In this document: piece after piece, positions 9,896 to 35,123 of the stretch | Position numbering within the stretch: position 1 is the stretch's first letter | Layout of the letters: every line of letters begins with the position of its first letter | The notes under the pieces: model-generated | What the model was told of the DNA's origin: nothing | What the model saw: only the letters and a program-made list of their open reading frames with translations | The model's database searches: none | Assembly: GCA_963575745.1 (NCBI GenBank) | Contig: CAUYUJ010000324.1 | Location: 62,001 to 115,342 of the forward strand | Length of the DNA: 53,342 nt | Direction of reading: 5' to 3' | Source: Prorocentrum cordatum | Lineage: Eukaryota | Translations under genes and position numbers: made by a program

Positions 9896-11084
9896 GCGGC
9901 TTACGCTAACTTACGCTATCCAACGCCTGTTTGGCGCCACCCGCCCGGAGGTCAAACGTTAAGTCTGGGCGGTCCAAACGCATTCGGAGAGCGCCGCGGC
10001 TGGATTCGATGTGAGATTCTGGTCAGAACACGCCTCGTGGGCTTTTGCCCTGGGTTTTCAATTTTCTGGAACGAGCGGAGCTCGGCGGCGTTTGCTTCCT
10101 CCCGAGAGGGCAGCCCAAGGTATAATATTACATTTTGTTGTGTCAGAGCGACGGTGCCAGGGTTGTTTTTGTTGCGCGTGTGCAAACAGCCCCACCGATG
10201 CCCATGCACTCGCGAGCGCAGGCGTTGACGCAACCGAAGTTTTCTCAAGGGGCGGGGGGGGCTCATTTCTGAGGGCGGGGAACCTCGAGGATTTGTCAAG
10301 TTTCTCGGGGTGGAGGCTTCCCGTTTCTGGGGGGGTGGCCTCGCGAGAAGTCGGCGGCGGCTTTGACGCGAACAGTGGACAGCTAAAAGTCGGCGAAGCA
10401 TCGCTGCTGCCGCGCGCGCGCCTTGGGATTGAAAATTCACAACTGACGGTTTTAATTTTTTCAGCTCCGCATTTTCTTTTTTGGGCGTTCTGGGTCTCCA
10501 TTTATTTTGGGCGGTGGCCTCTCGTTTCTGGGGGCGGGGTTCTCGCTGTGTTTTTTTTTTCCCCGACGACATGCGCGCGGAAATTGCAGCTGCGGCTGCT
10601 GCGCGGCGCAGTTGCAGGACGCACAGCTACCTGCGGTTGCAGCTGTCTGTTGGAGACTCTGGCTTTTCATGCCTGAGTTCCCAATCCTCGTGCGTCGGCG
10701 GTGGACACACCTCACTGTAGTAAACCTCTCCTTAGTGCAAACGGCCTGGGACCGAAACCGACGGACCTGGACCCGCAAAAATGACGGCCTCGACGCCCTC
10801 TCGCAAACCGAAAACGGCCAATTCCTCAATCGACGTGTCAGGGTAGGAGGTCTATCCACTCCCGAGTGCAAGGGGAAAACGCGAGTCGCACGTATAGCTG
10901 CAGCAAGCTATGCGCGACCGCGACCGGATAATATATGGGAGAGGGGAGGCTCGGAGCAAGGCGGTTTGAGACATTGGGAGTTCGAAGTCAGCTCAAAATC
11001 TGTCCCCGGGCCCTTTCCAGGCTCCAAACGCACCAGTTTGTCGCGCTGCTTTCGGCCGTAACGACGAGGGGCCCCTCCGCAGGC

Positions 11085-11340
11085 CAATTGTAGAGGCCTC
11101 CTAGATGGGGTCGGAGTAGATGGGGTCGAAGTATCGCGCCGCATCGCCAATGCATCGCCGATGTATCGGCGATGCATCGGCGATGCACTGGCGATGCACC
11201 TGCGATGTCGGCGATGCTTTGGCGCCATTGACGCGGCGAAAGTCGGGCTCCGAATCGAGCGGCATCGCCGACGCATCGGCGATGCGGCGCGATTCTTCGA
11301 CCACAGCTGCTCCGACCCCATCTGGGAGGCCTAGAAATTG
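11085..11340. repeat. Foldback/MITE-like unit: ~31-bp inverted repeats enclosing 11-bp GCATCG(C/G)CGAT tandem repeats
   Basis: caattgtagaggcctcctagatggggtcggag (11085-11116) vs reverse complement of ctccgaccccatctgggaggcctagaaattg (11310-11340). Confidence 0.7.
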
Positions 11341-11454
11341 TCAGTGTCTCCCTCCGCCGAGAGGCGGAATGCGAGTCGGCGGCTGTCCGTGTCGGCGGCC
11401 GCGTCGGCCAGCCGCGTCGGCGCGCATTCGGAGCGCCCGCTTCGGGGCTCTCCT

Positions 11455-11734
11455 CGGACTCGTTGGACTCGAGGGCCCCGGTGCGCAGGAGCGGGGGGCG
11501 GGGGCTCGAGGAGGAGCGGAAGCCGAGGTTTTCCATGGCAGTAGGCTCGGCCCTCGAGCTCAAACAAAAACACGCGCACAAACGCTCGCAGGTCCGGACT
11601 CGTCGGACTCGAGGGCCCGAATGCGCAGGGGCGGGAAGCGGAGGCTCGAAGAGGAGCGGAAGCAGAGGTTTTCCATGGCAGTAGGCTCGGCCCTCGAGCT
11701 CAGACAACAACACGCGCACAAACGCTTGCAGGTC
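11455..11734. repeat. 140-bp tandem duplication (2 copies)
   Basis: 11455-11594 and 11595-11734 both run cggactcgt.ggactcgagggccc ... cacgcgcacaaacgct.gcaggtc. Confidence 0.9.
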
Positions 11735-12494
11735 CGAGCAGGCTGGCCCGATCTTCCCTGGCCGATATCGCACGTTCGGCTCAGCCGACGTCTCGGTCGG
11801 CGGGAAGTCGCCGTCTATCTCGGCGAAGATCCGCTCCACCAACGAGGAGGTCGAGGGGGGGGCGAGCGAGGGGAGGAAGGGGCGAGGAGGGATGACGAGG
11901 ATGAGGAGGAGGAAGAGGCGAAGGCCTCCTCGACCAAGTCAGCAGTAGCCTGGGCGAAATCGCGCACCGCCCGCTCGATCTCTCGCACCGCCTCCTCGAA
12001 GGAAAACGTGTTTTAGGTCCGTTTACTCCTCTTCCTCTTTTCCCTCCCCTTCCGCTCCAACTTACGGCATCTCACGGTATCTCACGGCCTCGCCCTCGGG
12101 GGGTCCTCATCTTTTGGATCGCGCTCCTGGGACAGGACCTTCCCCTGGCCCCTGGAACTCGACATCGCCGCGACATTCTGAGTCTGCACGGCGCCAGTGG
12201 GAAGACCAGAAGGCACCGATACCGCTGACCCTCTGACCTCTCCAGGGGTGCGTTCTGACAAGAATTTCGAGGCGAATCCAGCCGAGGCAACGAGGAATCT
12301 CCAGGAGGCCCGAGAAGGACAAAAGGGCGCCGTGGTAGCGGCATCGGCACCCTTTCCTCGTAATCCACGTCGGTCATCGAGAGCGAGTCATATATGACGG
12401 TCACGACGTTTTGCGCATCATCAGGGAGACTCTGCTGACTCATCGGCCCAGGGCTTCTGCTTCGCCCGCGGTCCATATGGGCCGAGTCCCCCAC
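11600..12494 (-). CDS. Possible degenerate multi-exon hypothetical cargo gene
   Basis: Protein-like segments MDRGRSRSP...DVDYEER, FSFEEAVREIERAVRDFAQATADLVEE and VERIFAEIDGDFPP separated by pyrimidine-rich intron-like tracts; no family recognised. Confidence 0.3.
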
Positions 12495-13854
12495 CCTGCC
12501 GCCTCAACATAAGCTCGAACCAGAAGGAGAGGGGGAAGGCGGGCGGAGGGGAAAGGACGAAGGAGGGAGGGAGGCAGGGGGGAGGAGGAGGAGCAGGAGG
12601 AGGAGGAGGGGGAGGAGGGAATGGAACGGACAGTTCAGCGGACAAGACAGCACAAATCAGCATGGGCGCGCCACGGGATACGACCCAGCCCTCGAACCCC
12701 AAGGTGGACCCGAGGGCCCAGAAAGGGGACACAAGGGAGAAGACCAGGATCCGCGGGCATAACCGCGCCAACCTGCGAGCCGTAGGATTTAAACTCATTG
12801 GCGTTGGTTCCTGACACCGCGGGAATCGTTCAACCTTGAATGATCGCCTGTTTCCCGGGCCACCGGCGGCGTTCAACCTTGAACGCCCTTGCGTTGCTTT
12901 CTGCTTGCATGCCCTCTCTCTCTCTCTCTCTCTGTCATTGTCTCTCCCTCCCCTTCCGTTATCCCTTCCCCCCTTCTTCTCCATTCCCTCGACATCCTCT
13001 TTTATGTCGCGTTCCCCCCCCTCTCGTTTGCCCTTGCCTTCCATCCCCTCCCTCCCCTTTCCTCCCATTCCCCTTCCCTGAAATCCTGCCGCCTCACTCT
13101 TTGCCAGGTTTCAGGCCCCGGGGCCATCGCAGATCGATCTGGCTCGAGAAATGACGCAGAAAGATGGGGTCTAGGGCTCCGGCTGAGATTTTTCAGGATG
13201 TTGCATTTTTTTTGCGACGTCGGAGCTCTGGGCCCCTTTCCTCCCGCGGGGCGGGCGCGCGCGCCAGGGGCGGGCAAGCGCGCGCGGGGGGCGGGCAAGC
13301 ACGCGCGGGGGGCGGGCAAGAAAGCAGTGCACGGGCAAGCGCGCGCGGGGGGCGGGCAAGAAAGCAGCGACTTGACGACCTTACGCTATCTTACGCTAGC
13401 TGTCGAGCCTGTCAGGCCTGTCAGGCGGTCCGCCAGACCCTAAACAGCTTCTGCACCGGCGTTCGAAGCGTTCGAAGCGGACCCGAATCTCGCTGTTCAG
13501 GGATCCCCTGCCAAAGCTTACCTCCCCCTTCTCTTCATCTTCTTCATCCTCCTCAAGGGCGCCCAGCTTCGCGCTCTCGCGCCACCCCCAGGGGCGAAGA
13601 AACAAATGGCGAAGAGGCGTAGCCGAGCCGCGAAGCGCGAATAACTTGCCCCCCCCCCATCGGCCCCCTCTTTCGAGTCGGAAAAACTACACAAACATTA
13701 ACTTTCGGAGGTCGCCGCGGATTTCTCGCGTCGGCGCCAGGCTCCGTTGGCGGCGCCTTTGACGCCACCATTGACGCCGATCCAAATAATCTGCGCGGGC
13801 CTCCGAAAGGTGTTTATGTAGTTGTTGTTGTTATTCAATTTCTGATGGCCGAGA

Positions 13855-16406
13855 TCAGTCTGCCATCCAGTGCGCGCAATCGTGGATGCGCGTTATTAAG
13901 CCAATGGCGTACTTGTGCACGCAACTGTCAACTACAGTCAGGGAATGGCACGACCTCGCTGTTCTCAACATTATGCCCACCATGTCCTCATCTCCGAAGC
14001 AATGAAAAAAAACGGGGATTGTTGCGATCGTCGAGCGCATCAAGTACTCGGTGGTGAAACTGGTGCATCCTTGGGATGTGGGTCCACATTAGAAGATCGT
14101 CGCTTTCCCTGCTCATTTCACTGAAAGTGTACAAGAACGTGTGTGATGCATGATACAATCGAGGCAACTCGGCATCCGTGAAAAAAACTGTCAGCTGATT
14201 TGATCACGCGAAAATACTCTGCAAGACCCCAAAGACACGAGCTCAACACTGCAGCTTGCCGCTTATCATCATTGTTGCATTTTCTGGAGAATTCTAGAGA
14301 CACATCCGCTAGCCATGCAATCAACGCTGGGCTCTGGGCTGCTTTCGCCCTGAAATGCACGGGGGCACCTCTCTTATCACGCTGAAGGGCTGCTTTTGTA
14401 AACTTTCTGCACGAACGCGTCAACTTGCGGTTCGAACGCCATTTCTTGAACCTTAAAAACAAATCGAACAATGCCGCGGACATTGGGGCGTCATTGGGCA
14501 GCGCAGCGGCGCCCTCCACAGGCCCTAACTTGTCATATGCCCGGTGTTCCGCCAGAAACCATAAAGCGCATCCGATCACCACCCAAGCAATTCCAAGGTT
14601 CACGATGTGCATGGAATCTCCGCGCGTCCTCTCCAGTCTCCACCCTGGGATTTTTGTCAGCACGGACTTCTTATCACATAACTTGTCGCGCGCTTCGCGG
14701 GGCTGGGCGGTCGTGCGCCAGGGCGCGTTTGGGCCCCAATCCCAGTGCGCAAATGCCTCTAAGGCTTTGCTTGCCCAATCCCGGTGGCAACAGAAATTAT
14801 TGCGGTAACCCCTGGGGGGGCGCGCCCGCGAATGCAATGCCCCCTTGCGCTATCTTACGCTATCTCACGCCACCGCGTCGGTTGACGACGGTGGCCGAGC
14901 GCAAGATACCGCGAGAAGGCATGGCGCACAGGCGCGCCGTTTGAATCATCCTGTAAATGCAAAGCTGCAGCTGCGACCCATGATGCGCGTTTTCTTTCCT
15001 CCCTACCTTCCCCTCCTCCCCCTCCCCCCCCCCTCCTCCCCCGCGGCCCCGCGCCCCCCTTGAGGGGGGGGCGGCGGCGCGGGCGCGGCCCAACTCACGC
15101 TATCTTACGGCATCTTGCGGCCTCGCCCTCAGGAGGGCAACGACGAGGAGGGCGGGGAGGGCAAGAAGGTGGAGGAGGTGGAGGAAGATGATGAGAGGGA
15201 GGCGGAGGATGGGGGCCATACCTTCCCACCCGGGGTTGCCTGCTGGCGCTGCATTGCAGGCCTGGCGCGGGCCTCCACATAAAAGTTTCGGTGGGCCATT
15301 CCCAGTCCCCCCGATACTCATTGAACAGTCCCACATAGCCTCCAACTATATACTGGTTCTTGGCAAGCTCTGCGCGGCGGCTGCGACTCGGCCACGGCTT
15401 GCCCGTGTGATCTGTGGGAGGGCATCGCCCTGCGGTAAGCCATGACAGTGACCACACAAGTACAGCGTATAATTCTTCATCAGTTTTTCCTTTTATGAGG
15501 TATTCGTCTGGCATGATCGTGAACAAGAACTTGGAAAACAATGTGTCTGACCTGCTCGTTGTGCTACCCCAGGCAATATTCAAAATTTTGTCCCTGGAAA
15601 TGTGTTGGCCCTTGTCTGCGTGGACCCCGAGTGGGATGCATTTTTTCGGGTCGCGATGGTGCGTTTTGAATCCAGGATGTTCTTTTACCCAGGGCTTGTC
15701 CCATTCATGCTTCCAGAACTCCTCCAGAGAATCGGCGTCGCCACCAACGAGCATATATTCGAAAGCCTCGGGACCTGCATCATATATAGCTCCAAAGACT
15801 TCATGTGGATATAGGATGGTGTGCTTCCGCACACACTCACCATGATCCTTGTCCTTCTTAAACGTAATATCAACATCAATAGGATCTAAAGAAATTGCCC
15901 GAGTTTCACACCATTTGATGAGGTCCCGTTGGCAGTTTGAAGGGTGCTCGCCATGCGCACCCAAAGAGGCCCATCTCGAAGTGGCGTCTTGGTGATCGCC
16001 GTAATCGCTTAAAACATCTTGGGCAATTGCTTGGGCCTCCGCAGCCGACAGTCGCCCGCTGCAGTATTTATCCAGCAGGCGGCGCCCAATCTTGGTGCCC
16101 TGATTGAAAATCCAAAAACTGTTCGGGTTCGGGGGGAAGGGTAATTGAATTTTTCTGACAACCGCGATTCCCCCAGGCCCTCCCAGGCCCCTAACTTCGC
16201 GCCCTCGATAGGCCGCCCTGGGGAAGTGGGGCTATCTTCGCGCCCCAGGCGGTGACCGCGCTAACCCCCCTCCCTCAGTTTTCAATCGGGCGATCCTCCG
16301 GGAACACTTTCGCGGGCGGATGCAGCGCAGCAGCGGGGGCAGCCGAATCGCGGCGTCGCGCCGCTTCTTGCCGGAGGGCTGCTAGCCTCTGGACCGACTT
16401 GAGCAT
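13855..16406 (-). CDS. EnSpm/CACTA(CMC)/Plavaka-like DDE transposase, ~630 aa, 3 exons (16406-16296, 16099-15273, 14811-13855), with two +1 homopolymer frameshifts
   Basis: IPLGVHADKG (D1), YRGDWEW (D2), CCHRD, GDSMHIVNLG (DxxH motif), IPRMHQFHH, NPRFFHCFGDEDMVG (E). The GC-AG intron 15272-14812 joins in frame. Exon 1 (GA donor) is less certain. Extra A in runs 14181-14187 and 14005-14012. Confidence 0.8.
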
Positions 16407-16919
16407 GTCGGCTGCTGGAGACCCCGAATTAAACTTAACTCAAGGACAAAGCCAAAAGGGCGGGCGAGCGGAATGCGAGAGAGAAAGGAAACCGTGGAGG
16501 GGGGAAGAGAGGAGGAGAGAAAGGGAGGGAGGATGGGGGGGAAGGGATGGGGAGGGAGGAGAGGACGGGAGGAGGAGGGGGAGGTAGAAAGGACGATTCA
16601 CGTTCGGAGCAGCAACAAAAATGTAAATTCAATTCGGCCCCTGCCATGCACATGCCAGCTTCGCCGGCCTCTGATATAGCTTTCCAGCTATATACATCGC
16701 TATCGCAAGCCGACGCGTCCCGACGTGGATGCGGAACAGGAAGGGATGAGGGTGATGATACACATCGGTCGCAAGATGTAGGTAGAATAATTAAGTAGGA
16801 AGGCGCTTGAAATAGATTGCGGTCTGGAAATCCAGAAACACTTGCTTTCAACGACCAGCGAGTAAGGGGTCGGAATAATAATAATAACAATAATAATATG
16901 GATGAGGATAGAGAGAAGG

Positions 16920-17480
16920 CAGAGGAGGAGAGGTGACGCTATCTTACGCTATCTGACGCGCCCTCGTGGAGGTAGAGGCGGATGTGGAACGGGAGGAGAG
17001 AAGGATGAGGATGAGGAATAAGAGGAAGAAGAGAGGGATGAGGGGGAGGAGGAGGCAGAGGAGGATAATTTACGCTATCTTACGCTATCTGACGCGCCCT
17101 CGTGGAGGTAGAGGCGGATGCGGAACGGGAGGAGAGAAGGATGAGGATGAGGAATAAGAGGAAGAAGAGAGGGATGAGGGCGAGGAGGAGGCAGAGGAGG
17201 AGAGCTGACGCTATCTTACGCTAGCTGACGCGCTCCCCTCGAGGTAGAGGTAGATTTGGAACAGGAGGAGAGAAGGAGGATGAGGATGATGAATATGAGG
17301 AGGACGAGAGGGATGAGGGAGGGGAGGAATCAGGGGAGGAGAGATGACGCTATCTTACGCTATCTGACGCGCCCACCCTTCATGTAGAGGTGGATGCGAA
17401 ACAGGAGGAGAGGGTGGACGAGGATGAGGATGAATAGGAGGAAGACATGGATGATGGTGAGGAGGAGGCAGAGGAGGAGG
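16920..17480 (+). repeat. ~137-bp purine-rich tandem repeat, 4 copies, each headed by gacgctatcttacgctatctgacgcg
   Basis: Unit starts near 16935, 17071, 17207 and 17347. Confidence 0.88.
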
Positions 17481-17639
17481 AGGAGTTGATGACGAGGACG
17501 AAGAGGAGGTCTGGGGCAGGAAACGCGACAGGAGCCTGAACAGCGACGAGCCAGCTCCCAAAGCAGAGCATAAAATTCAGGACGATCAAAAAAAAACTAC
17601 ATAAACATAACCTTCGAACACGCGTTTCTCGAGAAGCCT

Positions 17640-20600: not shown

Positions 20601-21231
20601 AGCCCTCCTCCTTCTCCACCTTCAGCATGAGCCGCGCGCGCCGCCTCAGCTCAGCCAGCTTACTTTCGACGCTGTCCTGACTCATGTCCCTGCCGCCCTG
20701 AGGCCCACCCTGTGGCTGCGCAGCCTGACCAGGCGGAGCAACGCCAGGCTCTGGTTTCACTGCAACTGCAGCTGGGGCCATCAAGATCTTGCCGCGGTAG
20801 TCCACCATCACCTAGAAGCTCATCGTCATCATCATCACCGCCATCATACAGTCGAGGCGTTGACCTAAGGAACCCTAAATAAGGAACGAGGCCCCTTCTT
20901 CCCAATAAGTTCAACCTCGATTTCCCATGGGAAACCGGAGGAAAACCCGAGGCACACTTTGACACAATCAAGGAACACCGAACCACTCCCCAACGAAAAG
21001 GGTTCCTTCTTCAGCGCCCCGACTGCAAACGTCATCAGCATCACCATCATCGTCAACACCATCGTCATCATTATCATCACTGCCGCCACCACCGCCATCA
21101 TCATCAACATCAGCATCATCGCCAACAACATCGTCATCATTATCGCCATCGCCACAACCATCACCACCATCATTCACCTTCCCCTCGGCGTCCCTGCAGG
21201 AGACCATCCGGGCCCGCCCTGGAGCCGCCAT
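17640..21231 (-). CDS. Multi-exon hypothetical cargo protein (exons ~21231-21178, 20811-~19990, ~19028-18140, ~18003-17640), with local frameshifts
   Basis: MAAPGRARMVSCRDAEGK|GT...AG|VMVDYRGK joins in phase. Contains 4x QLGKGND repeats and globular segments HRAMLHARMKRK..CPPLLAEKW, KSEIFKLFLACGGD and RARYHPDFPGDLTMVEY, then a helical C-terminal region. Confidence 0.6.
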
Positions 21232-21468
21232 GGCCAACTTCTTTGAAGAAGGAGGTTGCTGGGCTTGACAACCTCTCGAGCACAAAGGCTGAAATGCACG
21301 TGCTATCATCAGATAGTACCCCGCAATTTCGGATACGAGTGAGGGGGCGTTTAGGTGGGTCGCGGGGCGGGTCGAAGGTCGCGGGGCCGGTCGGCGATAA
21401 GCCACTCACCCAGGGATGGCATATAGACCGTTCGGGCACCCTCACTCTGATCTTCAGCTTGAGATTCA

Positions 21469-22110
21469 GAACTCACGGTAACTCACGGTAACTTACGGCC
21501 ACTCTGCAAGTCAGAACCCTCGGCTAACGGCAGCCAGGGTTCCACAAATCAGAACATATGAGCAATTCACGGTAAATCACGGCCTCTTTTGCTCAAGCAC
21601 CTGCAATCCATGGCAGTCGAGCGTGGGGAATCTGCAACTCGCGGTAACTCACGGCAACTCACGGCCTCATTTGCCCCTCATTGGGAGCATCATATGTCGA
21701 CACGCAACGTTCGAGCGCGGAAGACCTGCAATGCATGGCAATCCAGCGAGGGAAGCCTGCAACTCACGGTAACTTACGGTAACTTACGGCGAGAGTCTTG
21801 GAAGGATCCAACTGGAAAATTGCAAATCACCCTTTCTCACGTGCGTTCATGCCTGGGGTAGACGCAACTTACGGCAACTTACGCTAACTTACGGCACCTA
21901 GGGTGTTTGACCCAATTGCGGTGGCGCTTAATCTGCACCAAATTGAGAATTGCCAAACACTGTATTTCCTACATTATGCTAGCTTACGCTATCTTACGCT
22001 ATCTTACGCTTGATTACGCTATCTTACGCTATCTTACGCTATCTTACGCCGGGGGCGGGCCCTCCTCACGCCATCTGACGCTAACTTACGCTAACTTACG
22101 CTATCTTACG
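21469..22110 (+). repeat. Densest cluster of the element-specific 10-mer (AACTCACGGT / CTTACGCTAT tandem runs)
   Basis: e.g. 21983-22049 cttacgctat-cttacgctat-cttacgcttg-attacgctat-cttacgctat-cttacgctat-cttacgc; 21761-21790; 21867-21895. Confidence 0.9.
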
Positions 22111-24321
22111 CCGGGGAGGGGGGGGGGTACACCACTTTTACTCCTCTCCCCCATCATCGCCGTTCTCCTCCGGTTGCGTTTCTCGCCCCCCCAGGCCCGC
22201 GAGCGGCCGGGAGAAGGGCAGCGGGAGACCCGGGGGCCCGGGCATCGATGTTCAGGGACACGGAAGGCGCAGGCATTTTGCCAGGCCCGATCTCTCCTCG
22301 TAGTTTTCGGCTGGGCGCAGCTCGAAAAAACTTGGCCAAGGCGACCCTTGGGGGAGCTGTCCCAGCTGGACAGGCGGTGCGGAGCGCCACCGGGGAGCAA
22401 GCCTTTAAATTCTAGCGCGCCCTCGAGCGGCCAGCGAACTGCATCCTAGAAACAACGTAACATTGAACGTTCGGATGTTGTTTGCGCGGGTTTCATGCGT
22501 CGGCAGTGCCCGCCCCTAGCACATGGCACGCTTCGCGCGTCATGCGAGCTCGGGGCGGCCCAGCGCCGAACGCAGGGCAACCCGCGCGGACAACATCCGA
22601 TCATTCATGTTTATGTGGTTTCTTTCTGAAAAAACTGCGCGCAGCACAGGAGTCTCTCGACAATGCCGATTGCCTGGAGGCGGAAGGTGGGAGGAGGACA
22701 TTATCTGCTCTACCATCTCCCTCCTCGCTCCATCCCTCTTCATTCTACCTCTCATCCTGGTCGGGGATTGGCAACTCACGGTAACTCACGGTATCTTACG
22801 CCCGCGTAGGCGGAGAGGGGGAAGGTGAGGATGATGAAAAGATGAGGGGGAAGGTGAATGAGAGAGGAGGGTGTGCAGTTTAACGACATTTGTTGACATT
22901 GAATATTCATATATATATATATACATGTATATATACACATCTAGATATTTTTATTCAAATGCACATTCACACATGAATGCATGTATCTATATACACAGGT
23001 GTATATATTTGCGTATTTATATGCATACGTATACAGTACAGAAATCCAACCTTACGATATCTTACGGCATCTAACGTAAGCGCGTGCAGTGTCTCAGACA
23101 TGTCGATGATATTTTTTGTATATGTATACATGTATACATCTATAGGTAAGTCGGTGTATGTGTATGTAAGTTACATACAGCCAGTATTACGCGATCTTCC
23201 AGTATATAAGGGTAGCGCGTGCAGTTGTTCAGAAAGGTCAATTGTGTACACAAGTCTACGCATACATACTTACATACATACATGTGCGCATGTGTTTATA
23301 CATGTAATGTATTGATTACACACCTTACGCTATCTTACGGTATCTAATGGTAGCGCGTGCAGTTTCCCAGCAAGGTTTTGAACATACACCCATCGATATG
23401 TACATACGTGCATGGAACTACTCATATGTTACATACACACATACACATGCATACATATGCGGATGTACATGTAAGTTACAGGCAGCTCATCTTACGCTAT
23501 CTTACGGTATCTAATGGTAGCGCGTGCAGTTTCTCATAAAGATGGTGCACATACACACGCATTCATGTACATATATATATACGTGTATGTAATTCTGAAT
23601 TTGTATACATACATATGCATACACATGTGCACATACATTGATGCGTACATTTACATGCACATGTAAGTTACATCATACTTATCTTACGTTATCTTACGGT
23701 ATCTAATGGCAGTGCATGTTTTTTCACAAGAGAATATTGTACACATGCGTGTGTTTGCATGGATGTATGTATGTGCAAAACATTGCTTGTATATACATAT
23801 CGATATCTAAATTTCACACATGTGTATCTATGTGTTGGCGTGTGCATGCGCATGTACATATATAACAAGTGTATCTTACGCTATCTTACGGTATCTAATG
23901 CTGGAGTGTGCGTTGGAGTTGGGGTTGAGCGGACCACCCTCCATCATTGTCATGGATTGACAACTTGCGGCAAGTCGAGATGAGGCCAGGCTTATATAAA
24001 GCACCCCTGCATGCTCGCATGCAAAGTGCGGCCGAACTTCCCGGGCAGTTCGGCATTCAGAGCCTGGCCTCCTTGAAAATACGATTGCTATGCGGTTGGC
24101 CAAGTGAGTCAGGATAGGGAACTGGGGGGGGAAAGGGAGGGGGAGGAAGAGTGGAGGAGGAGGAGGAGGCGAAGAGGAGGCGGCCAGAAGAGCGCGGCCC
24201 GATCAAGACAGGCGACCGAGGGGCAGGGGGTTGGGAGGAGGAAGGAGGAGGAGCGGGGGGGGGAGAGCAGAGGGAGGAGGAGGAGGAGAAGGACAATAAT
24301 CACAATTGGCCAACCACGATG

Positions 24322-25665
24322 CTACAGCACTACTGGCTCTGCTGAGCCTTGAGCGCCTGAAGCTCCGAGAGAACCTGAGGCAGGCCCGCGTCCTCCCCAT
24401 GGGTCCTGGCTGCAATCGTTCGAGACCAGTTCGCCCAGCGGGATGCCATCGTCGTGGCAGCGATGGTTCACGAACAGATTTCCCACGGCTTCACCGAACC
24501 CGATCGGGTATGCTTCCGTTCCCTTCAGAGCCGGCGCTCCCCAAACTTGCACTGTCCCATCGCTCTTCTCGGTGTAGGTGACTGTTTCGATGGTTGACGG
24601 CTGGCTGGTGTCCCGGGCCTTCCAAAGACTACTGATACTCAAAGTGTTTGCATGGAGGATGGTGGCCTTCGGACTCTCAGCTCCATACGGTTGCATCCAC
24701 ATGCGAAGCACATTCATCGAGTCTCCTAGAATATGGCAGAGCTGTTCCCATCTAGGGTGACGCTCGAAAATCGATGAGCTCGGCTGCTCCGCAATCACCA
24801 TTGCGTTGTGGAGCAGCACAGCCAAGGCCACTAACAGAACAACACGGCTTACTTGCATGTTGGCTCTCTGAACGAAGGGCTGATGATTTCCCAACGGATG
24901 GTGTTGTCGACCTGTTTGGAAGCGGCCCACCCAGACCCACGTGCTGCACGGGGGGGCAGCCCAGAGCAACCCCCCAGGTTCCAGGGCAACAACGTATGTG
25001 AGTGCTTTGACGAAGCCTGCTGTGGTCGTAATGTCATCGGATTCTGCAACGGTCTTGAAATCCAATGCCACTCCAGAGAGAGCGTGATTGCGAACACCAT
25101 TCGTGATCGAGCGACACCCTGCAAAAAGCTCGACGCTGTGCACGGGCATTGGGTTCCCGCCGAGATCCAGTAGCAAGCCGACGATTGCCAACAACATGCC
25201 TGGGGGAGTAGGAGGAGGAGGAGGAGGAAGAGGAAGCGGGCGGAGGATGAGGGCGGGGAAGGGGAGGAAGTTGAAGGGAAAGGGGAGGAGGAGAGATGGG
25301 AGTAGGGGGCCCGAATATAGGCGGGAGGGGGGGGAAGCTTAAGATACCAACCCTCAGTTGTTCTTCCTCTCCCCTCTCCTCCTCCTCCTCCTCCTCCTCC
25401 TCCTCCTCCTCATCCTCATCCTCATCCTCATCCTCCTCCTCCTCTGCCTCTTTCGACGGATGTGCAACTTACGGTATCTTACGGTATCTTATGCGTTTCT
25501 TGCCCGGAGTCGGGAACCTGGCACGAATTTCGAACTCTTCATGAGGTGGCATTGGCCTGCCAGCGACGAGCAAGGAGCGTTCGCCATGGCTACCGAGTCA
25601 TCATCGGACGCAGATGGTTCGATCCCAGGATCTTCTAACATGCTAGAGTCGCTGCTGCTCGACAT
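24322..25665 (-). CDS. C5 cytosine DNA methyltransferase-like cargo gene (exons 25665-25518 and 25199-~24325)
   Basis: Motif I VELFAGC, IV WAAPPCSTW, VI AEQPSSS, VIII YGAESPKAT, X EAYPIGFGEAV. The GT-AG intron 25517-25200 joins in frame (KFVPG-MLLAIV). Confidence 0.82.
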
Positions 25666-25969: not shown

Positions 25970-26154
25970 CAGTGGGGGCGCGTGCCCAGAAACCAGTTGG
26001 ATTTTGCCAGAGTGCCCTGGGTTTCTTGGATTTCGATGGGCCCCCAATCAGAACTTTGCGATTTTCGATCAGCACATGTGGATTTTCACCGAACAAATCG
26101 CGGATTTCAGGGTTGGGTTTCTTGCGGAGGTTTCCTGTGGCCGAGCCCCCACTG
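25970..26154 (-). mobile_element. Tc1/mariner-like MITE, copy 1 (inverted relative to copies 2 and 3)
   Basis: CAGTGGGGGC...GCCCCCACTG termini with CA on both sides; interior matches the reverse complement of 30308-30485 and 32778-32940. Confidence 0.7.
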
Positions 26155-26164
26155 CATACACGAT

Positions 26165-29100
26165 CTATTTGGGGGCAGGGAGCCCCATCTTGTGCTCAAT
26201 GAAATGGTCGAGCAACTGCGTCTGGATGGCCATCCAGCTCGCCTCTGGGTTCTCGCCCCACTTGATCTGGGGCGCCTTGACGTGCTTGGGTTTCACGATC
26301 CTGAACGCTTTGTCCTCGAGCAAGACCTGGGATTCCGAGCGCCACTTCAACAGACTATGGGGCATCTTACGGTATCATACGGTATCTCACGCCATATTGC
26401 CCCCCGATTGAGTTGTCGTGCAATCACCATGAGGGGCCCTACAGTCAACTAGTACAGCAAGGTTGCGCGATAAGGATGCAAGTGCCATGGGCGCCCATTT
26501 CGAAGCTTTTCGAGCGGGGCGCGCCCAGCGACGGCGGCGAATGATGGACCGAGGAGGCGAGGATGCAAGGGTACCCTTGTAAAGGCTGCTCATCCTTGAT
26601 ACGCGGGTTGGCTGTAATCAGCTCACGCGCGACTACACGAAGCGGTCGAAGCGGACCTTCATGTCACTGTTCAGTTGCGTCCTCCAAAACCTCACCTCCC
26701 CCTCATCCTTCTCCTCTTGCTGCTAGTGCTGCTGCTCCTCCTCCTCCTCCTCCTCTTCTTCCTCTCCCCTCGTCCGCACCCCCCCTCGCGGGGTGACGGG
26801 CCGAGCGCGTCGCCCTCGCGGGTGGCGGGCCGAGATCCCCCAGGGCCCCTCCCCACGCGGCGGCGGATCGAATTCGGCCCGGCGCTCTCGGCTCAGCGGA
26901 AGCCCTCGACCCCATCCTCCTCGCTTGGCACGCGGGCCGCCGCCGGAGGAGGAGGAGGAGATGAAGGGGGGGGTCAGGAGGAGGAGGAAACGAAGGGAAG
27001 AGGGAGGAGGTTTTTGTTGAGGAAGAAAGATGGCATAAACATAAACGTTCGGAAGTCAACGCGGGGATTTCTTGGATCGCCGCTGGACACCCTTCCTCTG
27101 CGCGCTGAGCACGCCAGGGGCAGCGCCATAGGCGCCGCCAGGGGAGGGAGTCCTGCGCCAGCCGAAGGAATCAGCGCGGACCTCCGAACATTTCTGTTCA
27201 TGTAGTTTTGTTATTAGTCGGTTGTTTGTTGTTGTTACCTCGGAAGTTTGTTTGCCCGGATACTTCAACCCTGCAGTCGTGGCCGCGCTTCCCGATCGTG
27301 ATGTTCTTGCTGTAAGAATGCTCGCCGCGGGGTCCGGGGCTCGGGTGGAGCTTGGCCGGCGTGAACGCGAGGAACTCCTGACGCCGCGCGTTCCAGTCAG
27401 CGGGGTCGCAGAGCGTCTTGCCGAACTTGCTCTTACGAGCGCCATCTTTGGGAAGCATGCGAGGCCAGGTGGGGTTTCGCGAGGTGGAGGGGGGGGATCA
27501 AGCCTCCCCCTCCGCCTCCTCGTCCATGCACACGTATGTGTGTATACATATGTATGTGTATATAAAAATTACAACACTACAGAACCTGTGCCTTACGCTA
27601 TCTTACGGTATCTAACGCTAGCATATGCAGTTTAACAAATATGGTCGACCATACTATGTGTAAATATCCATACACACATGAACACATGTCGATGCACTTG
27701 TACACACATTCGTACATGCATATACACATAACAACATATATGCGTATTGCCATACTTATATGTGCGTATACACATGTATATCTGTATATACGTATATCAT
27801 GCAACAACTGTCTTACGATACATTACGGTATGTAACGCTAGCGCGTCTGATTTCACATAATAGCGTCTCGCGCGCACACCGGCGCACACACAAACATACG
27901 CATATGTGTACTCACGTATTACAGAACTTGCACTTCACGATATCTTACGGTATCTGATGCTCGCGTGTGCGTGGGTGAAAAAAACAACACGGAATGATAA
28001 CCTCTAATTCTTCCTCACCGAGCCGCCTCTGCCGCACCCCCCAAACCAGAACAACGGCCAGAACCACATAGCGTGGCAGAGCATAGCATGGCATTGCATA
28101 GCTCTAAACCATCTGAACATATATATACATACATGCGTGTGCGTGTTCATCATCGTTGTCTGACGGCCAGCCTGACACTTGCGATATCTTACGGTATCTT
28201 ACGGTGCGTGATGCTGCACCGTAGCGCAGCATAGCATAGCAAAGCATAGCATAGTTCAATGCTAAGTGTGGATGTATGTGTATATATATATATATATGCG
28301 TGTTCATCATCGTTGTTCGTCGGCCAGCCTGGCACTTACGATGTCTTACGATATTGTACGGTGTTTGTTGCCGCTGCGTGGCATAGCACAGCATAACATC
28401 AATGCTATGGTGTATGTATAGGTGTGTGTGTGTGTGTGATCATCATCGGTATGCGCTGGCCAGTCTGTCACTTGCGCTATCTTACGGTATCTTACTGTGT
28501 TTTCGATGCCGCGGCGCCTGGTGCTGAAGATGTTGCTTCCGCGGCGTCCGAACATGGTGCTGAAGATGATGGCATCGCTGCGTCATCACCTGGTGCTGAA
28601 GATGATGCCATCGCTGCTGCCGGCCTCTTCATCCTTGCTGTCGCCTTTGCCTTCCCTTTTGGCTTGGGCTCACGTGTTGCGTCTTCCTCTGACTCCTCAG
28701 CGGCCGCCTCCTCCATGCCATCCTCAGCCGCCTTTCGGGCGGCCCGCGACTGCGGCGGCTTCTTGCCCTGGGCCTCCAAGAGCAACATTGCCGCCAGCGG
28801 GGGCTCGCTCGGCGGCGGGAGCCCACGCTTGTCCTCCTCTGCCTCCTCTGGCGCCTCCTGCGCGTCCTGCGCGTCCTCATGCGGCGCCTCCTCGTCGCAC
28901 TCATCGTCCTCATCTGAGCGAGCGCCTTCAGGGAGATCATCGTGCTCCTGCCACGAGCCATGCGGCTTGCCGCCGTCCGCCTGCGTCTCGTCGCCTGCGG
29001 CTCGCCACTCCTGCCTCGTCACTCGCCTGCTCTCGCCACCCGCCTGCGGCTCGCCGCTCGGCTTCCCCTCGCAGCCCAGAGACTCGTCGTCGGAAATGAC

Positions 29101-29576
29101 CATTGCGTGGCCCACGAGCTCCTGGCTCGTGGCGGAGGCTATGGGCGCGGGGGCCGCCTGCACCCATCACCCCCGCCGCCACCAGGCGTCCTATAGACCG
29201 AGGACGCCTGGGATAGGCACCACAAGTTCGTTCCTCTCCTTCCTCTCCTTCCTCCGTCCTCTCCTCTTGCCCATCCGTTCTCTTCCGTCCTTCCTCCATC
29301 CCTTCCCTCCTTCAGCTTTCGTCCTTCCTCCGTCCTCTCCTCTCCGTCCGTCTCCTTCCTCTCCTTTTTTCTCCTTCCTGCGTCCTTGTTGATGCCATCC
29401 ACGTTGTGCACGCTATCCGCCTTGGACATCATCAGGTTGGCCGCGATCTGCTCCAGCTGAGCCTCCGTCAGCGAGGGATTGGCATCTGCCAGCTCCGCCA
29501 CGATAAGGTCCACGTCCTCCTTCTTCGGCACCTCCTGAGCCTCGCCGTCTGGGATAGGCACAGCCTCGGGCTCCAT
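26165..29576 (-). CDS. Multi-exon hypothetical cargo protein (acidic/Ala-rich linker, KPKGKAKA..MKRPAA basic patch, small C-terminal globular domain)
   Basis: Segments 29576-29390, ~29157-28500, ~27458-27264 and ~26327-26165. The last two join by GT-AG as GEHSYSKNITIGKRGHDCRVE|VLLEDKAFRIVKP...QIKWGENPEASW. Confidence 0.5.
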
Positions 29577-30307
29577 GGACAGGAGGTTCGCTCTCTTGAA
29601 CTTCGGCTTCGTCCTCTCCTGGGGGACATCGTTTTGTTCCCCTCTTGTGTTTCTTTCTCTATCTCTCTCCCCCTGTGTATGTATACATATTTATATATAG
29701 CCACAGAACATGTATCTTACGCTATCTTACGACATCTAACGTTAGTGAGTGCGCGTTGACATAACTGGATTTACATACTATGCGCATGTGTGTATATGTG
29801 TATACATAATACAAGAATACACATACGCGTATATGCATACACATATACATATATGTGCATATATTTATATATGTACACAAATTACAAACATACCTTGAAT
29901 CATCTCGAGCCGAGATCCTATCATCATCGCGCAGGGCCCTGGGCAACTTACGATATCTTACGGTATCTAACGGTACTTGTGCCCAAATATCATCACCATC
30001 CCCCTTCCCCCTCTTCCTCCCTCTGAGGGGAAGTGGGGGAGGGGGCAACTTACGATGTCTCATGATTTCTAACGGTACTGATGGCATACTGTCCGAACAT
30101 CCCCACCATCCCCCCCCCCTCCTCCTCCACCGCACCCTTTCCTCTGAGTGGGAGGGGATATGATGGGGAGAGGGGGGGGGACCTTACGATATCTTACGAT
30201 ATCTAACGGTACTTGTGCCCCAACATCATCACCATCCTATGTCTTGTTCCTCCTCCCCTTTTCCTTCGGAGGGCAACTTACGATATCTCACGGTATCTCA
30301 CGGCCTG

Positions 30308-30485
30308 CAGTAGGAGCTCCGGCCACAAGACATTTTCCGCAAAACAATCAACACTGAATCACCAGGAAAGTTGCCGATGTTTTTGCTTGGGAACCCCTTC
30401 GTTTCCTTTTGTAAAACCACCGAAACCCAAGAGACCCAGGGTACCCTGGTGGGAGCAGGGTGTTTCTTGGCATGAGCCCCCACTG
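30308..30485 (+). mobile_element. Tc1/mariner-like MITE, copy 2
   Basis: tg|CAGTAGGAGCTC...GAGCCCCCACTG|ta. Confidence 0.7.
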
Positions 30486-30599
30486 TATGCCCCCCTCCTC
30501 ATACTCATGCACCTCGCTATTTCTCTTACTCGTGGCCCATGGGTACCATCCTGCAGCCGCGGATCAGCATACGCCGCACCCAATCCCAGACTGCCGGGG

Positions 30600-33500
30600 C
30601 TGATCTGAACCGGGTGCGGATCCTTCTCTGGGTCATCATCCTTCTCTGGGGTCTCAATCTCCGACGAAGCACCGCGCCTAGTCCTGGTCACAGGCTCGGG
30701 AGGGACCAACTTCTTCAACTCGGCGATCTGGTCGTCCTGGGGGCCCACATGGCTGCGGGCCCAAAACTCACGACCGGACCTCACGACCCAATGTTTCATC
30801 TTGCGAGCCTGATCGATCCGCAAGGGTCATGACGCCCGAAGCGGGACGCAAATTTCACTCGTTTTTTTCACGAGCATCCGCGCCCATCCCCCTTCCCCCT
30901 TCTCCTCCTCCTCCATCTCCTTTCTTTGAGGGGGAGGGGAGAGGGGAGCAACTTACGCTATCTCACGGTATCTAACGCCCACCATCCCCATTCCCCTCCT
31001 CTTCTTCCTCCACCTCCCCATCCTCTTCTTGAGGTAGAGGGAGACCCTTGGACCCACATCGGTCCCTTGACCCTGTTCTGGAAGATCTGGCCAGGCGCAA
31101 CAAATAGCTGACCATCGCGTGGATGACCTGCGGGTTTGCATATGTATATATGCGTGCGTGTGTTCATCATCATTGTTCGTCGGCCAGTCTGACACTTACG
31201 ATATCTTACGGTATCTTACGGCGTTTGATGCCATAGTATAGCATAGCATAGCTCAATATTGTATGTATATGCGTTTGTGTTATTCATCGATGTTCGTGGG
31301 CCAGCCTGGCACTTGCGATATCTTACGGTATCTTACGGCGTTTGATGCCACAGCGTGGCATAGCATAGCATAGCTCAATATTGTTTATGTATATAGATAT
31401 GCGTGTTCTTCATCGTTGTTCGTTGACCAGCCTGGCACTTACGATATCTTACGGTATCTTACGGCGTTTGATGCCACAGCGTGGCATAGCATATCATGGC
31501 ATGGTTCAATACTACAGATACGCGTGTGTCTTCATCAACGTTGTCCGACGGCCAGCCCGGCACTTACGATATCTTACGAAATCTTACGGCGTTTGGTGCC
31601 GCAGCGTGGCATAACATAGCATAGCATTGTTGAATACTATATACGTGTGTCTGTGCGTGTGTGTGTTCATTATCATTGTTCGTCGGGCAGTCTGGCAGTT
31701 GCGATATCTGATGGTATCTTATGGCATGTGATGCCGCAGTGTGGCATAGCATAGCATAGCTCAATATTGTAGATATGTGTGTCTTCATCATCGTTGTCTG
31801 ACGGCCAGTCTGGCACTTACGATATCTTACGGTATCTTACGGCGTTTGATGCCACAGCGTGGCGTAGCATAGCATAGCTCAACAGTGTACGTACATATGT
31901 ATATAGATATGTGTGTGTTCTTCATCGTATTTCGTCGGCCAGCCTGGCACTTACGATATCTTACGGTATCTTACGGCGTTTGATGCCAGATCGCGGCGTG
32001 GCATATCATGGCATAGTTGAATGCTTCAGATACTTGCGTGTCTTCATCATCATTGTCCGACGGCCAGCCTGGCACTTGCGATATCCTACAGTGTCTGACA
32101 GCGTCTGGTGCCGCAGCGCGGCGTAGCATAGCATAGCATTGCATGGCATAGCTCAATACTATTTAAATATATATATATATATGTATGTGTATGCGTGTGT
32201 GAGTGTGTTCAACATCGTTGATCGTCGGCCAGCCCGACACTTACGATGTCTTACGGTATCTTACGGCGTTTGATGCCACATCGTGACATAGCATAGCACA
32301 GCATAGCTCAATGCTATATGCGTGTGTGTGTGCGTCCATCATCGTTGTTCGTCGGCCAGCCTGGCACTTGCGATATCTTATGGTATAGTATGGCGTTTGA
32401 TGCCCCAGCTTGGCATAGCATAGCACCGCATAGGGCAATGCTATAGACATGTGTGTATTCCTCGTCGTTGTCTGACGGCCAGTCTGTCACTTACGATATC
32501 TTACGGTATCTTACGGTTTTATCTTTCGATGTCCGTTCGACCGATCCCTAGTAGTTGCTCCATTTCGAGGGCGCATCGCCTCTCTCCTGCTCGACAGTGC
32601 GGCCCATGTTCCACTCGCTGCACCTGTCCAGCTCATGCACTGCCATGCTGTAGACATCTGCGGTGGGCTGGACCCCTAGGCGGCGGTTCTCAAGGCCCCT
32701 TCGAAACGCAGCCTGTGCCATCTTACGATATCTTACGCTACCTTACGCCATGCGCCCGCATGGCGCGAGGTGGCGTACAGTAGGAGCTCGGCCACAAGAA
32801 GCTTTCCGCAAGAAATCCCCTCAGAAACCCATCATTTTTTTGTCCGGGGACCTTACACTTCCCCAGGAATACCGCGGAAACCCAAGAGACCCAGAGTACC
32901 CTGGAGGGAAGCAGGGCGTTTCTTGGCATGAGCCCCAATGCAAGAGACACGAGGGGACAAGGGTTTGTCGAGAAGTTAGCGAGATGGCAAGGGTTTCTCG
33001 AGGACGAGGGACATGAAGGACTAGGGAGAGGGAGAGAGAGAAGGAGAGAGAGTGGGGGGGGGTAAGAATCTGAAAGTGCGTTCCGAAGGCCGGCCTTTCA
33101 GCCTCGTCAAGATCGCCTTGATGATATCAAAATTCGACTTGATGTCGTTCTGGCTCACCTCTGGGCACAGGGCGTGGAGAAGTGGAGACGGGATGAGGGA
33201 GGTGCAGGGGCGCGCCCTCGCATCTCCCCCATCTTACGGTATCTTACGATATCTTATGGGGAAGGGGGGGTGGAGAGTAGAGAATGAGGAGGGCACCTTG
33301 GGTTTGCCATCTGGCGGCGCGATCGTCCCCACCACGAAGAGCTCCTTGATCCTCTCGCAGCGCTGCACCCGCTCCGTAGTCAAGCCCTGGGGGGCGCCGC
33401 ACGTCCACGCCCATATGGGGGGGCGGGGGCGATCCCCTATGGGCATGGGTGGGTGTATTCTTCGGATATCGTGTAGCTTACGTCATCTTACGCTATCTCA

Positions 33501-33655
33501 TGGGGGAGGGCGCGTGCGATTTGCGTCGCGCCGACCTCGCTGATGGCGGCCACGAGAGCGTCGCATTGCTCGCTTGGGGCCCGCGGGAAGTCCTGGGCCC
33601 CCTGGGGGCCCTCCTCCTCGGAAGGGCCCTCGGTCCTTTGACCGGCCGACGCCAT
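30600..33655 (-). CDS. Multi-exon hypothetical cargo gene (may be the 5' part of the 26165-29576 gene)
   Basis: Short protein-like exons MASAGQRTEG...QIARALP, PIWAWTCGAP...DGKPK, VSQNDIKSNFDIIKAILTRLKGRPSERTF, PTADVYSMAVHELD and RIDQARKMKHWVVRSG...QIAELKKLV, separated by 10-mer-bearing introns. Confidence 0.4.
31145..32520 (+). repeat. Tandem array of ~11 units (~117-165 bp) built around cacttacgatatcttacggtatcttacggcgtttgatgcc plus (gcata)n and (ta/tg)n
   Basis: Cores near 31193, 31310, 31436, 31561, 31696, 31814, 31948, 32073, 32238, 32365 and 32488; three more related units at 28070-28500. Confidence 0.92.
32778..32940 (+). mobile_element. Tc1/mariner-like MITE, copy 3
   Basis: ta|CAGTAGGAGCTC...GAGCCCCAATG|ca. 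Confidence 0.68.
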
Positions 33656-35123
33656 CTGAAGCCGAAAAGGCTGTGAAGGTGAGGTAGGGGGAGAGACCTT
33701 GAAGCTGGTCCTACATATGCCTCTACATGTCGAGGCGTTTCTACATCCCAGTGGGCCAGAATGCCTGGTGAGAGGGTGCATCTTACGATATCTTACGGTA
33801 TCTAACGGAGCCCCCTTTCCCACCCCCGTATTTTTCCCCCAAGTCCCTGGCCTCAATCGATGTCCATGGGCGAGTCCAAAAATATGGGCGGGTCGAGGTC
33901 GACGATAGGAGGGCCCCTGGAACGGGGCGAGTTGACGGTCTCAGCGTCGGAGTCTCCAGAACTCGCGATGCACTCGGGGTAGGCGAACCAGGGAAGCCGA
34001 ACCTCAGAAGAGGAAAATGTACCGACACCGCTACCCCGCCGCCGTTTTGTCCTTCTTGGGCTTTCTGGGGATTCCTCGTTGCCACGGTTGGATTCGCCTC
34101 GAGATTCTGCTCAGAGAGCACTCTTGGAAAGGTTTGGGGACAGCGGTGTCGGCACTTGTTGGTCCTCCCAGAACCACGCGATCATCGGCCCATCGCCGGG
34201 CCAAGGGCCCCCATGGATGGAGCGCATCTTCAGCGCCAGGGGGATTGCACCGAGAATAATCCAGACGTTCTTCATAGTAGTCCAGTGGGAAGAAGACTGG
34301 CACATCGCGCGGGAGAATGGCGCAGCGGGGGCGGTGATCTGGCGGGAACGACCACAGGCCGGGCAGGCCAAAGAAGTTGTCTTCGACGAGCGTTCTCCAG
34401 CGAAAGAAAGGTTTGGACACCTGGGCCATTTCGAGCCAGACGCTCTGGGAAATCAGTTTCGTGTTTCGGTGTGTATGTTTGCCCTCATCGCCCGTCTATC
34501 AATTAAATGTTTGATTTAACCATATGTGGTTTTGCGTTTTCGTGGTGCAATGCGCCTTGTTGTTTACAGCATTGTTGTTTATGTGTGCTGTCGCTTGGCG
34601 CTGAAAGAACATTCGCCTCGGTGGCCCAGCGTGTATTCACTCAATCTCGCGAAGAGTGTTTCCGTTTGGTGGGCTATAAATGCGTTTGTTTTGTTTGTTT
34701 TGTTTTTCTTTTTAGATAAAACAGAAAAAAAGAAGAGCAGCGGAAAACAACTGGGATTGCGTTTCCGCTTGGCGCTAAAAATGTGGTTTCTTTTGTCGCT
34801 CAGCGCGCATTTCCGAATCGCACGAGGAGTTTCCCGTCTGTTGGGTGGTCGAATGCGCGTTTGTTGATTAATTTTAAGTTTGCGTTTTCAAGTGGTTGTT
34901 TCCTTCGTCTCCCAGCGCGCTTTTTTGGACCGCGCGAAGAGTTTTGCGCTGGCTGGGCGGTGAATTTCGATGGTTTTCGTTTGTTGTTTTTGATTTGAAC
35001 TGTCGTTTGGCGTTAATTATGTTGTTTCTGCGGTCGCCCAGCGCGCTATTTAATAACGCGCAACAAATTTTTGAAATCGTCAGGGGCGTGAAACCCTTAA
35101 GCATTGGACACCGGGAGAGCTCC

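Follow-up and report, generated by a model that had tools for sequence, protein, structure and literature searches.

The TnpA motifs of En/Spm (CACTA) elements are 12 bp long, subterminal and present in both orientations. In P elements, pseudo-5′ splice sites regulate the splicing of IVS3, and intronic enhancers that bind U1 are also known. A close parallel with experimental support is that of VANC21 and the Mutator-like element VANDAL21 of Arabidopsis. In the available part of the source text (PMC5735166), the motif bound by VANC21 is 9 nt long, enriched in VANDAL21 and found mainly in non-coding DNA; its copies have one orientation and a high density and lie in tandem repeats, in introns and in upstream regions. 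Here, we describe a 10-bp motif, TAWCTYACGN, in a stretch of 53,342 nucleotides (nt) of Prorocentrum cordatum DNA (contig CAUYUJ010000324.1, positions 62,001 to 115,342; hereafter the window), where it forms tandem clusters across a 26,019-bp element (9156-35174) that has terminal inverted repeats (TIRs) at its two ends. By analogy with the VANC21 targets, we suggest that the clusters may be cis recognition arrays which mark the non-coding DNA of the element for a sequence-specific, most likely element-encoded DNA-binding factor. The probability of this reading is, in our estimate, about 0.38.

A one-strand field of tandem decamers

The sequence TAWCTYACG was found 70 times in the window, always on the + strand (70/70), with the first match at 9907 and the last at 33797. 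The chance expectation, based on 100 dinucleotide shuffles, was 1.35 (sd 1.12, maximum 5). On the + strand CTTACG occurred 100 times, 98 of them within 9175-35150, while CGTAAG was counted once in the window. Using units of the form CT.A[CT][GA] at an exact spacing of 10 bp, we obtained 49 clusters of at least two units, every one of them on the + strand. A looser census, allowing one mismatch per hexamer core, gave 52 clusters on the + strand versus 0 on the minus strand; 17 of the 52 had two units, 33 had three, one had five and one had seven. The original prediction, made by eye, of 55-60 clusters with two to six decamers was close to these counts, and its statement that all copies sit on the + strand is borne out by clusters (52:0) and TAWCTYACG matches alike. 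Each of the 17 example coordinates given there has a cluster within about 10 bp, the middle unit of the one at 26363 being degenerate.

All 52 clusters lie inside the element, forming a field at 9899..33810 on the + strand. The outermost clusters are at 9899, past the subterminal repeats, and at 33782, and 33811-35174 is free of them. The ends of the element were aligned with each other, the left TIR (9156..9215, beginning with CTACCCAGAGG) to the reverse complement of the right one (35115..35174); the TIRs are imperfect, with about 55 bp aligned. In the subterminal ~700 bp at each end there are repeats of other kinds but not a single cluster; those of ~125 bp at 9511-9873 are among them and likewise lack the decamer arrays. 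Outside the element, CTYACG was present in the window as isolated copies only, six on the + strand and two on the minus strand, never in tandem; the partial match expected near 1739 exists. Within this window, the motif ends at the element borders, as had been proposed; this applies to the flanks, in which no homology-supported host gene was recognised, and does not extend to host introns. The sole inverted copy of a cluster in the element, listed on the + strand at 14900..14923, is degenerate, with GC replacing GT in both units; over 24 nt, it shows 75% complementarity to the cluster at 15096-15119.

On the minus strand, which is the coding strand of both homology-supported genes, the motif reads C|GTRAGWTANC, that is, a splice-donor-like GTAAG or GTGAG every 10 nt. 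The original prediction had the + strand motif right but missed the minus-strand genes, for which the motif is a tandem donor-like GTRAG sequence. Inside the element, GTRAG was found 140 times on the sense strand versus 21 times on the antisense strand, and loose single units numbered 106 on the minus (coding) strand versus 1 on the + strand. Among 130 strict units, position +3 was A in 100 and G in 30, position +6 was A in 74 and T in 36, position +7 was T in 102 and position +8 was A in 80, with +9 free. Position -1 was C in 134 of 134 units, even though T was also allowed in the search, and -2 was variable. The predicted 10-bp period with phased CpG was also recovered: the spacing is exactly 10 bp, and each unit has one CpG at a fixed phase, which is kept in most units and changed to CpA in 12 degenerate ones.

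Most clusters have the same composite structure of ~26 nt, which on the coding strand reads C(G/A)T(T/A)AGATACC-GTAAGATA(G/T)C-GTAAG. Degeneracy is frequent in the first unit (G+1 replaced by A in 10/49, a pyrimidine at +3 in 19/49), which is followed by ATACC, a canonical GTAAG, ATA(G/T)C and a last GTAAG, after which T is most frequent (21/49). Accordingly, T at +6 was seen in 21 of 49 last units versus 6 of 36 middle units. In-register degenerate units numbered 34 upstream versus 6 downstream of the clusters, and the arrays break off sharply on the 3′ side, immediately behind a complete GTAAG. Of the 49 clusters, 34 close every sense frame with stop codons.

Tandem or dispersed repeat families, with units that are unrelated apart from the cluster, account for about 30 of the 49 clusters, and at least eight stand alone in unrelated contexts. 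Tandem Repeats Finder reported arrays with periods of 10, 118-127 and 136 bp. A 136-bp minisatellite (16900..17479, 4.2 copies, one cluster per unit) lies, on the coding strand, upstream of exon A of the transposase-like gene described below. Eight clusters with a spacing of ~105-125 bp occupy 21472..22111, together with a pure decamer run of 13.6 copies at 21974-22111, and are upstream, again on the coding strand, of the open reading frame (ORF) at 19912-20811. AT-rich units of ~150-190 bp, each with a ~27-nt cluster, form the B family (22880..23900, 19160-19925, 27590-27960 and one unit at 29716), while a minisatellite of 118-127 bp with one cluster per unit forms the C family (31137..32516, with a related array at 28069-28516). 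In all four groups, the clusters have the + orientation, and apart from the cluster the groups share no part. For 11 B-family units, the mean pairwise identity was 0.88 in the 27-nt core versus 0.30-0.47 in the 30-nt flanks (55 pairs, ungapped), and a MAFFT alignment showed the same drop outside the core. On the coding strand, two of the arrays separate the end of a gene from the first coding exon of the gene that follows, and may belong to a promoter, a leader or a first intron.

The likeness to the VANC21 targets, as far as the available text of PMC5735166 describes them, includes a short motif (9 nt there, 10 here), which is enriched in one transposable element there and, within the window, confined to one here; a mainly non-coding location in introns and upstream regions, with 0/49 clusters here in homology-supported coding sequence; and one orientation (52:0 here), a high density, embedding in tandem repeats and a spread over the element rather than over its ends only. 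In contrast to VANDAL21, the present element has another transposase family and another host group, green-alga-like in appearance, its motif is arranged at an exact 10-bp spacing in blocks of two or three units, and on the coding strand the complement of the motif is a splice-donor sequence. The VANC analogy drawn in the original prediction seems to apply to the architecture, agreeing in each checkable feature (non-coding position, 52:0 orientation, minisatellite core, conserved island), but not to the protein, as no VANC-type (DUF1985/DUF287) protein was detected by Pfam among the element ORFs of at least 140 aa. The second comparison made there, with the TnpA motifs of En/Spm, shares a short repeated motif in a large TIR transposon that is presumed to be bound by an element-encoded protein. 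As the clusters keep clear of the subterminal regions, this comparison breaks down on position, and it also does so on their single orientation.

Database searches for the motif were made as well. A metagenome scan with the short pattern TATCTTACGNTATCT listed at least 116 loci; for these, blastn showed no relation to the window other than the motif, and none of them had repeated clusters in an alga-like context; the scan is uninformative because the pattern is too short, and its hits are chance matches. In viral contigs, the motif 19-mer matched one phage-like contig, L001, which is unrelated and has a single run, intergenic and at L001:2990-3030, of the same decamer (TATCTTACGG) in about five copies. 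This run looks like an iteron-type repeat, and its likeness to the motif is coincidental, not a sign of kinship. In the literature, no description of the motif was found among the matches listed for literal 10-16-mers, nor under tandem-repeat, intron and splice-donor topics in algae; the preprint 10.64898/2026.10.09.758095 appears to have no bearing on it. The decamer pattern is real, very strong and unexplained, with a plausible known analogue.

Clusters in the introns of two minus-strand genes

The original prediction placed the motif in introns and spacers. None of the 49 clusters overlaps a homology-supported coding segment, and three lie in two homology-defined introns, which agrees with it; for the other clusters this placement is inferred from ORFs. 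The intron clusters start 24 and 153 nt past the exon end, and one of them ends 33 nt before the acceptor. Elsewhere, one cluster abuts a downstream coding-like ORF at 26366-26391.

Based on homology, the element appears to carry a DDE-transposase-like gene on the minus strand. The first search with its ORF (15098-16231, protein P0001) gave 14 relatives, the best of them labelled Pyramimonas sp. (63% and 61% identity), and an exhaustive search extended the family to 1953 proteins at E<=0.001. No Pfam family was found for the gene, and the protein had no relative in the viral contigs. In tblastn, the full-length relatives P0020 and P0024 (~620-650 aa) align to 16108-15272 and then to 14813-14184, with residue 329 of P0020 flanking the gap on both sides. 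These alignments define exon A (15273..16108, ending in ETFMWR), an intron of 461 nt (14812..15272, GCCCGC...CCCCCCAG) with two clusters at intron positions 154-179 and 404-429, and exon B with the C-terminal part (13897..14811), which contains a DSMH motif and two frame changes. Excision of 14812-15272 yields WPTETFMWRGYRNNFC in frame. Among 33 family proteins matched by a motif search, P0001 included, 17 relatives continue with unrelated sequence directly after WR, which suggests that the position of this intron is old. One transposase fragment, P0026 (61% identical to P0001), runs into the same intron and ends in HKIA-stop, the expected translation of ...CAYAAGATAGCGTAA; among 177 proteins examined, it was the sole case of such an end outside the window.

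The second gene was predicted as a cargo methyltransferase, and this holds at the level of the modelled fold. Its ORF at 24325-25338 on the minus strand encodes P0004, which has 15 relatives; an alignment of 14 sequences shows little or no variation in the FAG, PPC and EQP motifs. When the AlphaFold model of P0004 (mean pLDDT 70.9, pTM 0.69) was compared with PDB by Foldseek, 38 matches at E<=0.001 were obtained, of which the best were all C5 cytosine methyltransferases (EhMeth/Dnmt2, DNMT1, DNMT3, MET1 and M.HaeIII; top match 3qv2, E 3.5e-5), with low TM-scores of 0.24-0.34. Sequence searches of P0004 against Pfam (including DNA_methylase) and PDB gave no meaningful match, and the alignment of the family found no relative in the viral contigs. 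The members of this unnamed family have ~330-390 aa and go undetected by Pfam models; they come from metagenomes and from a transcriptome with the label Pyramimonas sp.

The methyltransferase-fold gene consists of exon 1 (25518..25665, minus strand, with ATG at 25665 and the end KSSKFVPG), intron 1 of 318 nt (25200..25517, GTTCCC...CCCCCAG) and exon 2 (24348..25199), which includes ELFAGC, PPCSTW and EQP and has a frame change in a G run near the C-terminus. The cluster of intron 1 is at intron positions 25-50 (25468-25493 of the window). Residues 5-58 of the transcript-derived protein P0167, labelled Pyramimonas sp., align to 25662-25504 (E 3.6e-7), and its residues 119-236 align to 25206-24853. 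Splicing of 25518 to 25199 gives ...KFVPGMLLAIVGLLL / ...KSSKFVPGMLLAIVGLLL, matching the relatives P0163-P0166 without gaps. P0167 keeps 60 codons between the exons, with TVRFDS about 8 codons in and also NLDSD, where the window reads DTVRYRK through the cluster. All three transcript-derived relatives labelled Pyramimonas sp. (P0005, P0006 and P0167) read into these introns. Judged from the peptides of P0026 and P0167, the relatives seem to keep the motif.

Intron 25200-25517 also has a long purine-rich arm followed by a pyrimidine-rich arm (35-55 nt, 73-86% complementary), which might bring the two ends of the intron together by folding. In the two genes, all three frame changes fall in homopolymers (A7 at ~14181-14187, A9 at ~14005-14013 and the G run at ~24395). 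Both genes may be intact and the frame shifts assembly errors.

Productive splicing at the clusters was considered and rejected in both homology-defined introns, since the clusters lie inside the introns, 24 and 153 nt beyond the exon end. In the methyltransferase-fold gene, the exon ends with CAG|GTTCCC, and the first unit of the cluster puts TAA in frame, so its GT sites cannot yield the conserved protein. In the first cluster of the transposase intron, the last unit, GTGAGT, is in phase with the acceptor but would add 57 low-complexity residues that are absent from all relatives. The exon-side AG of the mapped donors (CAG|GT and GAG|GC) is found in no cluster unit. A third junction, modelled from ORFs only (33387-33511, GCCCTC...CCCCCCAG), has a GC-type start, tentatively CGC|GCCCTC, with a cluster ~10 nt later. 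According to the available parts of two sources, the donor consensus of the prasinophyte Micromonas is AG|GTGCGT (PMC3879977), and GC donors are frequent in prasinophyte repeat introns (PMC3879977, PMC4815162). The apparent GC-start introns of the window, 14812-15272 (GAG|GCCCGC) and, tentatively, 33387-33511, both end in a C-run and CAG|G and are in line with such donors as far as those texts describe them.

Possible readers of the motif

Recognition by a sequence-specific factor is suggested by the extent of conservation in the sequence. It spans the whole decamer, including positions -1, +7 and +8, which are not needed for pairing with U1, and so favours a reader of DNA or another reader of the whole motif. 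The presence of clusters at both intron ends and upstream of coding exons counts for the same kind of reader, as does the repeated amplification of the block into different minisatellites, and the exact spacing of one helical turn fits cooperative binding to DNA. Further points in favour are the confinement of the clusters to the element within the window, their single orientation, their purely non-coding location without a set place in the gene, the peptide traces of the motif in relatives and the presence of the methyltransferase-fold gene in the element. On this model, the factor would bind cooperatively to two or three head-to-tail sites one turn apart, and selection for more sites would have driven the repeated amplification of the block into different minisatellites. 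The outcome could be control of chromatin or expression over the whole element, as in the VANC anti-silencing arrays, possibly in interplay with the element's own C5-methyltransferase-fold protein through the CpG of each unit.

Several points weigh against such a factor. Pfam revealed no DNA-binding or VANC-type domain in the 146 ORFs of at least 140 aa in the window, and the largest accessory ORF, P0002, had no relative among 8000 scored candidates and no Atlas match. By our estimate, GTRAG would arise in a random tandem decamer with a chance of ~2%, or up to ~10% if any RNA-processing motif is counted. The orientation of the clusters equals that of the genes, so the polarity of the DNA and the sense of the RNA are inseparable. 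The polarity of the arrays, with their sharp 3′ edge and the 34 upstream versus 6 downstream degenerate units, is easier to explain at the level of RNA. If an element-encoded docking factor does exist, VANC-like self-recognition arrays would no longer be limited to Mutator-like elements of plants but would also occur in a large DDE transposon that carries cargo, and an element with its own C5-methyltransferase-fold gene would be a compact system for transposon self-marking and chromatin control.

The main alternative, a serious one that we hold tentatively and consider somewhat less probable, is that the clusters act on sense transcripts as tandem sequences resembling 5′ splice sites (GUAAG/GUGAG) and bind the U1 small nuclear ribonucleoprotein (snRNP). 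They could be pads that aid weak or GC-type donors, decoy or alternative donors that lead to unproductive mRNAs and intron retention, or suppressors of premature 3′-end formation in long introns. The reverse complement, C|GTRAGW, varies at +3 and +6, where donors tolerate it; both homology-supported genes are on the minus strand, with the corresponding excess of sense GTRAG; and the low chance of finding that sequence in a tandem decamer and the 5′-to-3′ polarity of the arrays belong on this side as well. Furthermore, the mapped donors CAG|GTTCCC and GAG|GCCCGC are poor matches to U1, each with a cluster 24 to 153 nt on, the last unit of a cluster is most often GTAAGT, the first unit often lacks G+1 or has a pyrimidine at +3, and most clusters (34/49) close all three sense frames. 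The reading of all three transcript-derived relatives into the introns hints at inefficient splicing, and prasinophyte donors are GC-rich and often of the GC type in the accessible parts of PMC3879977 and PMC4815162. Against this, the clusters are not productive donors in either homology-bordered intron, no unit has an exon-side AG (-1 being C throughout), and the conservation of -1, +7 and +8 is unneeded for U1 pairing. One cluster ends just before the transposase acceptor and another abuts a coding-like ORF, and arrays also occur upstream of first coding exons, where transcription is unproven. For the 3′-end version, TGTAA was found within 40 nt downstream of 5/49 clusters versus 1.1 expected at random, in the B family only, which is weak support for a link with poly(A) signals.

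The clusters resemble the introners of Micromonas in their strand, which is that of both mapped genes. In contrast, introners are alike over the whole intron and spread through host genes in the available text of PMC4815162 and PMC3879977, whereas the likeness here is limited to a core of ~26-27 nt. The block has unrelated flanks (0.88 versus 0.30-0.47 identity) and lies away from the donor in both mapped introns. The pseudo-5′ splice sites of the P element offer another parallel, being non-productive donor-like sequences in a transposon transcript that could steer U1, but there single sites stand beside one regulated intron, while here about fifty tandem arrays extend over the element. We know of no precedent for element-wide U1 pads and of no described counterpart of an element-wide system of splice-donor decoys or pads. 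A more specific version, in which all introns and leaders of the element are seeded with non-productive tandem U1-complementary decamers so that U1 snRNP coats its pre-mRNAs, is correspondingly more doubtful. Such a code could rescue weak GC-type donors, keep transcripts intron-retained until expression is permitted, or evade a splicing-based genome defence. An RNA-level role would be a new use of the spliceosome by a mobile element. Whether a DNA-binding factor or U1 is the reader, the motif is a simple and highly specific sequence tag for finding copies and relatives of the element.

It is also conceivable, although unlikely, that the clusters have no present function and are either the relic of a duplicated splice donor or a "minisatellite core" prone to slippage and recombination, spread by segmental duplication and unequal exchange. 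Since about 30 of the 49 clusters are in tandem arrays or dispersed repeat families, their independent origins are far fewer than 49, and direct duplication would account for the single orientation. The human minisatellite core, which is shared by otherwise different minisatellites, is a known parallel. A functionless core is harder to reconcile with its identity of 0.88 against 0.30-0.47 in the flanks, with the eight or more solitary clusters in unrelated contexts, and with the peptide traces suggesting that the motif persists in relatives whose proteins are 61-65% identical. A role of the clusters as the preferred substrate of the element's methyltransferase-fold protein, which would methylate the phased CpGs of its own element, appears improbable. 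It draws on the Foldseek matches of the P0004 model to C5 methyltransferases, on the near-invariant FAG, PPC and EQP in 14 relatives and on the one phased CpG per unit. The protein has no sequence match to Pfam DNA_methylase or PDB and its TM-scores are 0.24-0.34; CpGs are plentiful elsewhere in the GC-rich element, which leaves nothing special about that of the motif, and the motif CpG has become CpA in 12 degenerate units. To our knowledge, known C5 methyltransferases do not read 10-bp motifs alone. The least probable explanation, which we rejected for want of any homology-supported + strand gene, takes the clusters as branch-point arrays (CTNAC) at the 3′ intron ends of + strand genes. The + strand units do read CTTAC, CTCAC or CTAAC, and in the B family GCAG follows ~15 nt on. 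There is, however, no pyrimidine tract between the motif and the AG, and the clusters that can be placed are inside introns of minus-strand genes.

Further content of the element and its flanks

No target-site duplication was clearly resolved at the ends of the element. The Pfam search of the 146 ORFs gave no match at E<=0.001 inside the element and none above the cut-off for the flanking ORFs, with two below-cut-off matches on one ORF outside the element; Rfam families (0) and tRNAs (0) were not found in the window. Further long coding-like ORFs were read in the element, all on the minus strand and without homology support. The ORF pieces on this strand within 33300-33655 read ...ALVAAISEVGATQIAR and GLTTERVQRCERIKELF, with the putative 125-nt GC-AG intron between them. 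Once joined, they bear what we take to be a resemblance to a helix-turn-helix, which would make the product a candidate DNA-binding protein of the element. Other candidates for a protein that binds the decamers are the products of ORF 18138-20811 and of an acidic ORF at 28495-29690, and the N-terminus of the transposase.

In the right flank, 41271-53342 is a tandem repeat with units of ~4.9 kb (82-88% identical), a strong C-over-G skew and internal sub-repeats of ~140 bp; no protein families were found in it beyond the two below-cut-off Pfam matches. A dispersed repeat of 191 bp (92.7% identical) is present once on each side of the element, at 7001-7191 and 38216-38406. Within the element, a 162-bp segment towards the left (12198-12359) is an inverted copy (79.6% identical) of 34010-34170, a stretch within the ORF that comes first on the minus strand, at the right end.

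In addition, four related inverted repeats were found at 13682-13826, 17592-17708, 22448-22623 and 27034-27202. Their arms are 16-45 nt long and 74-88% complementary and start with AAAAACTACA(T/C)AAACA..., and on the minus strand each repeat directly follows the point at which a coding-like ORF ends. From their sequence and position, they look like gene-end hairpins and are candidate transcription-termination or 3′-processing signals of the element.

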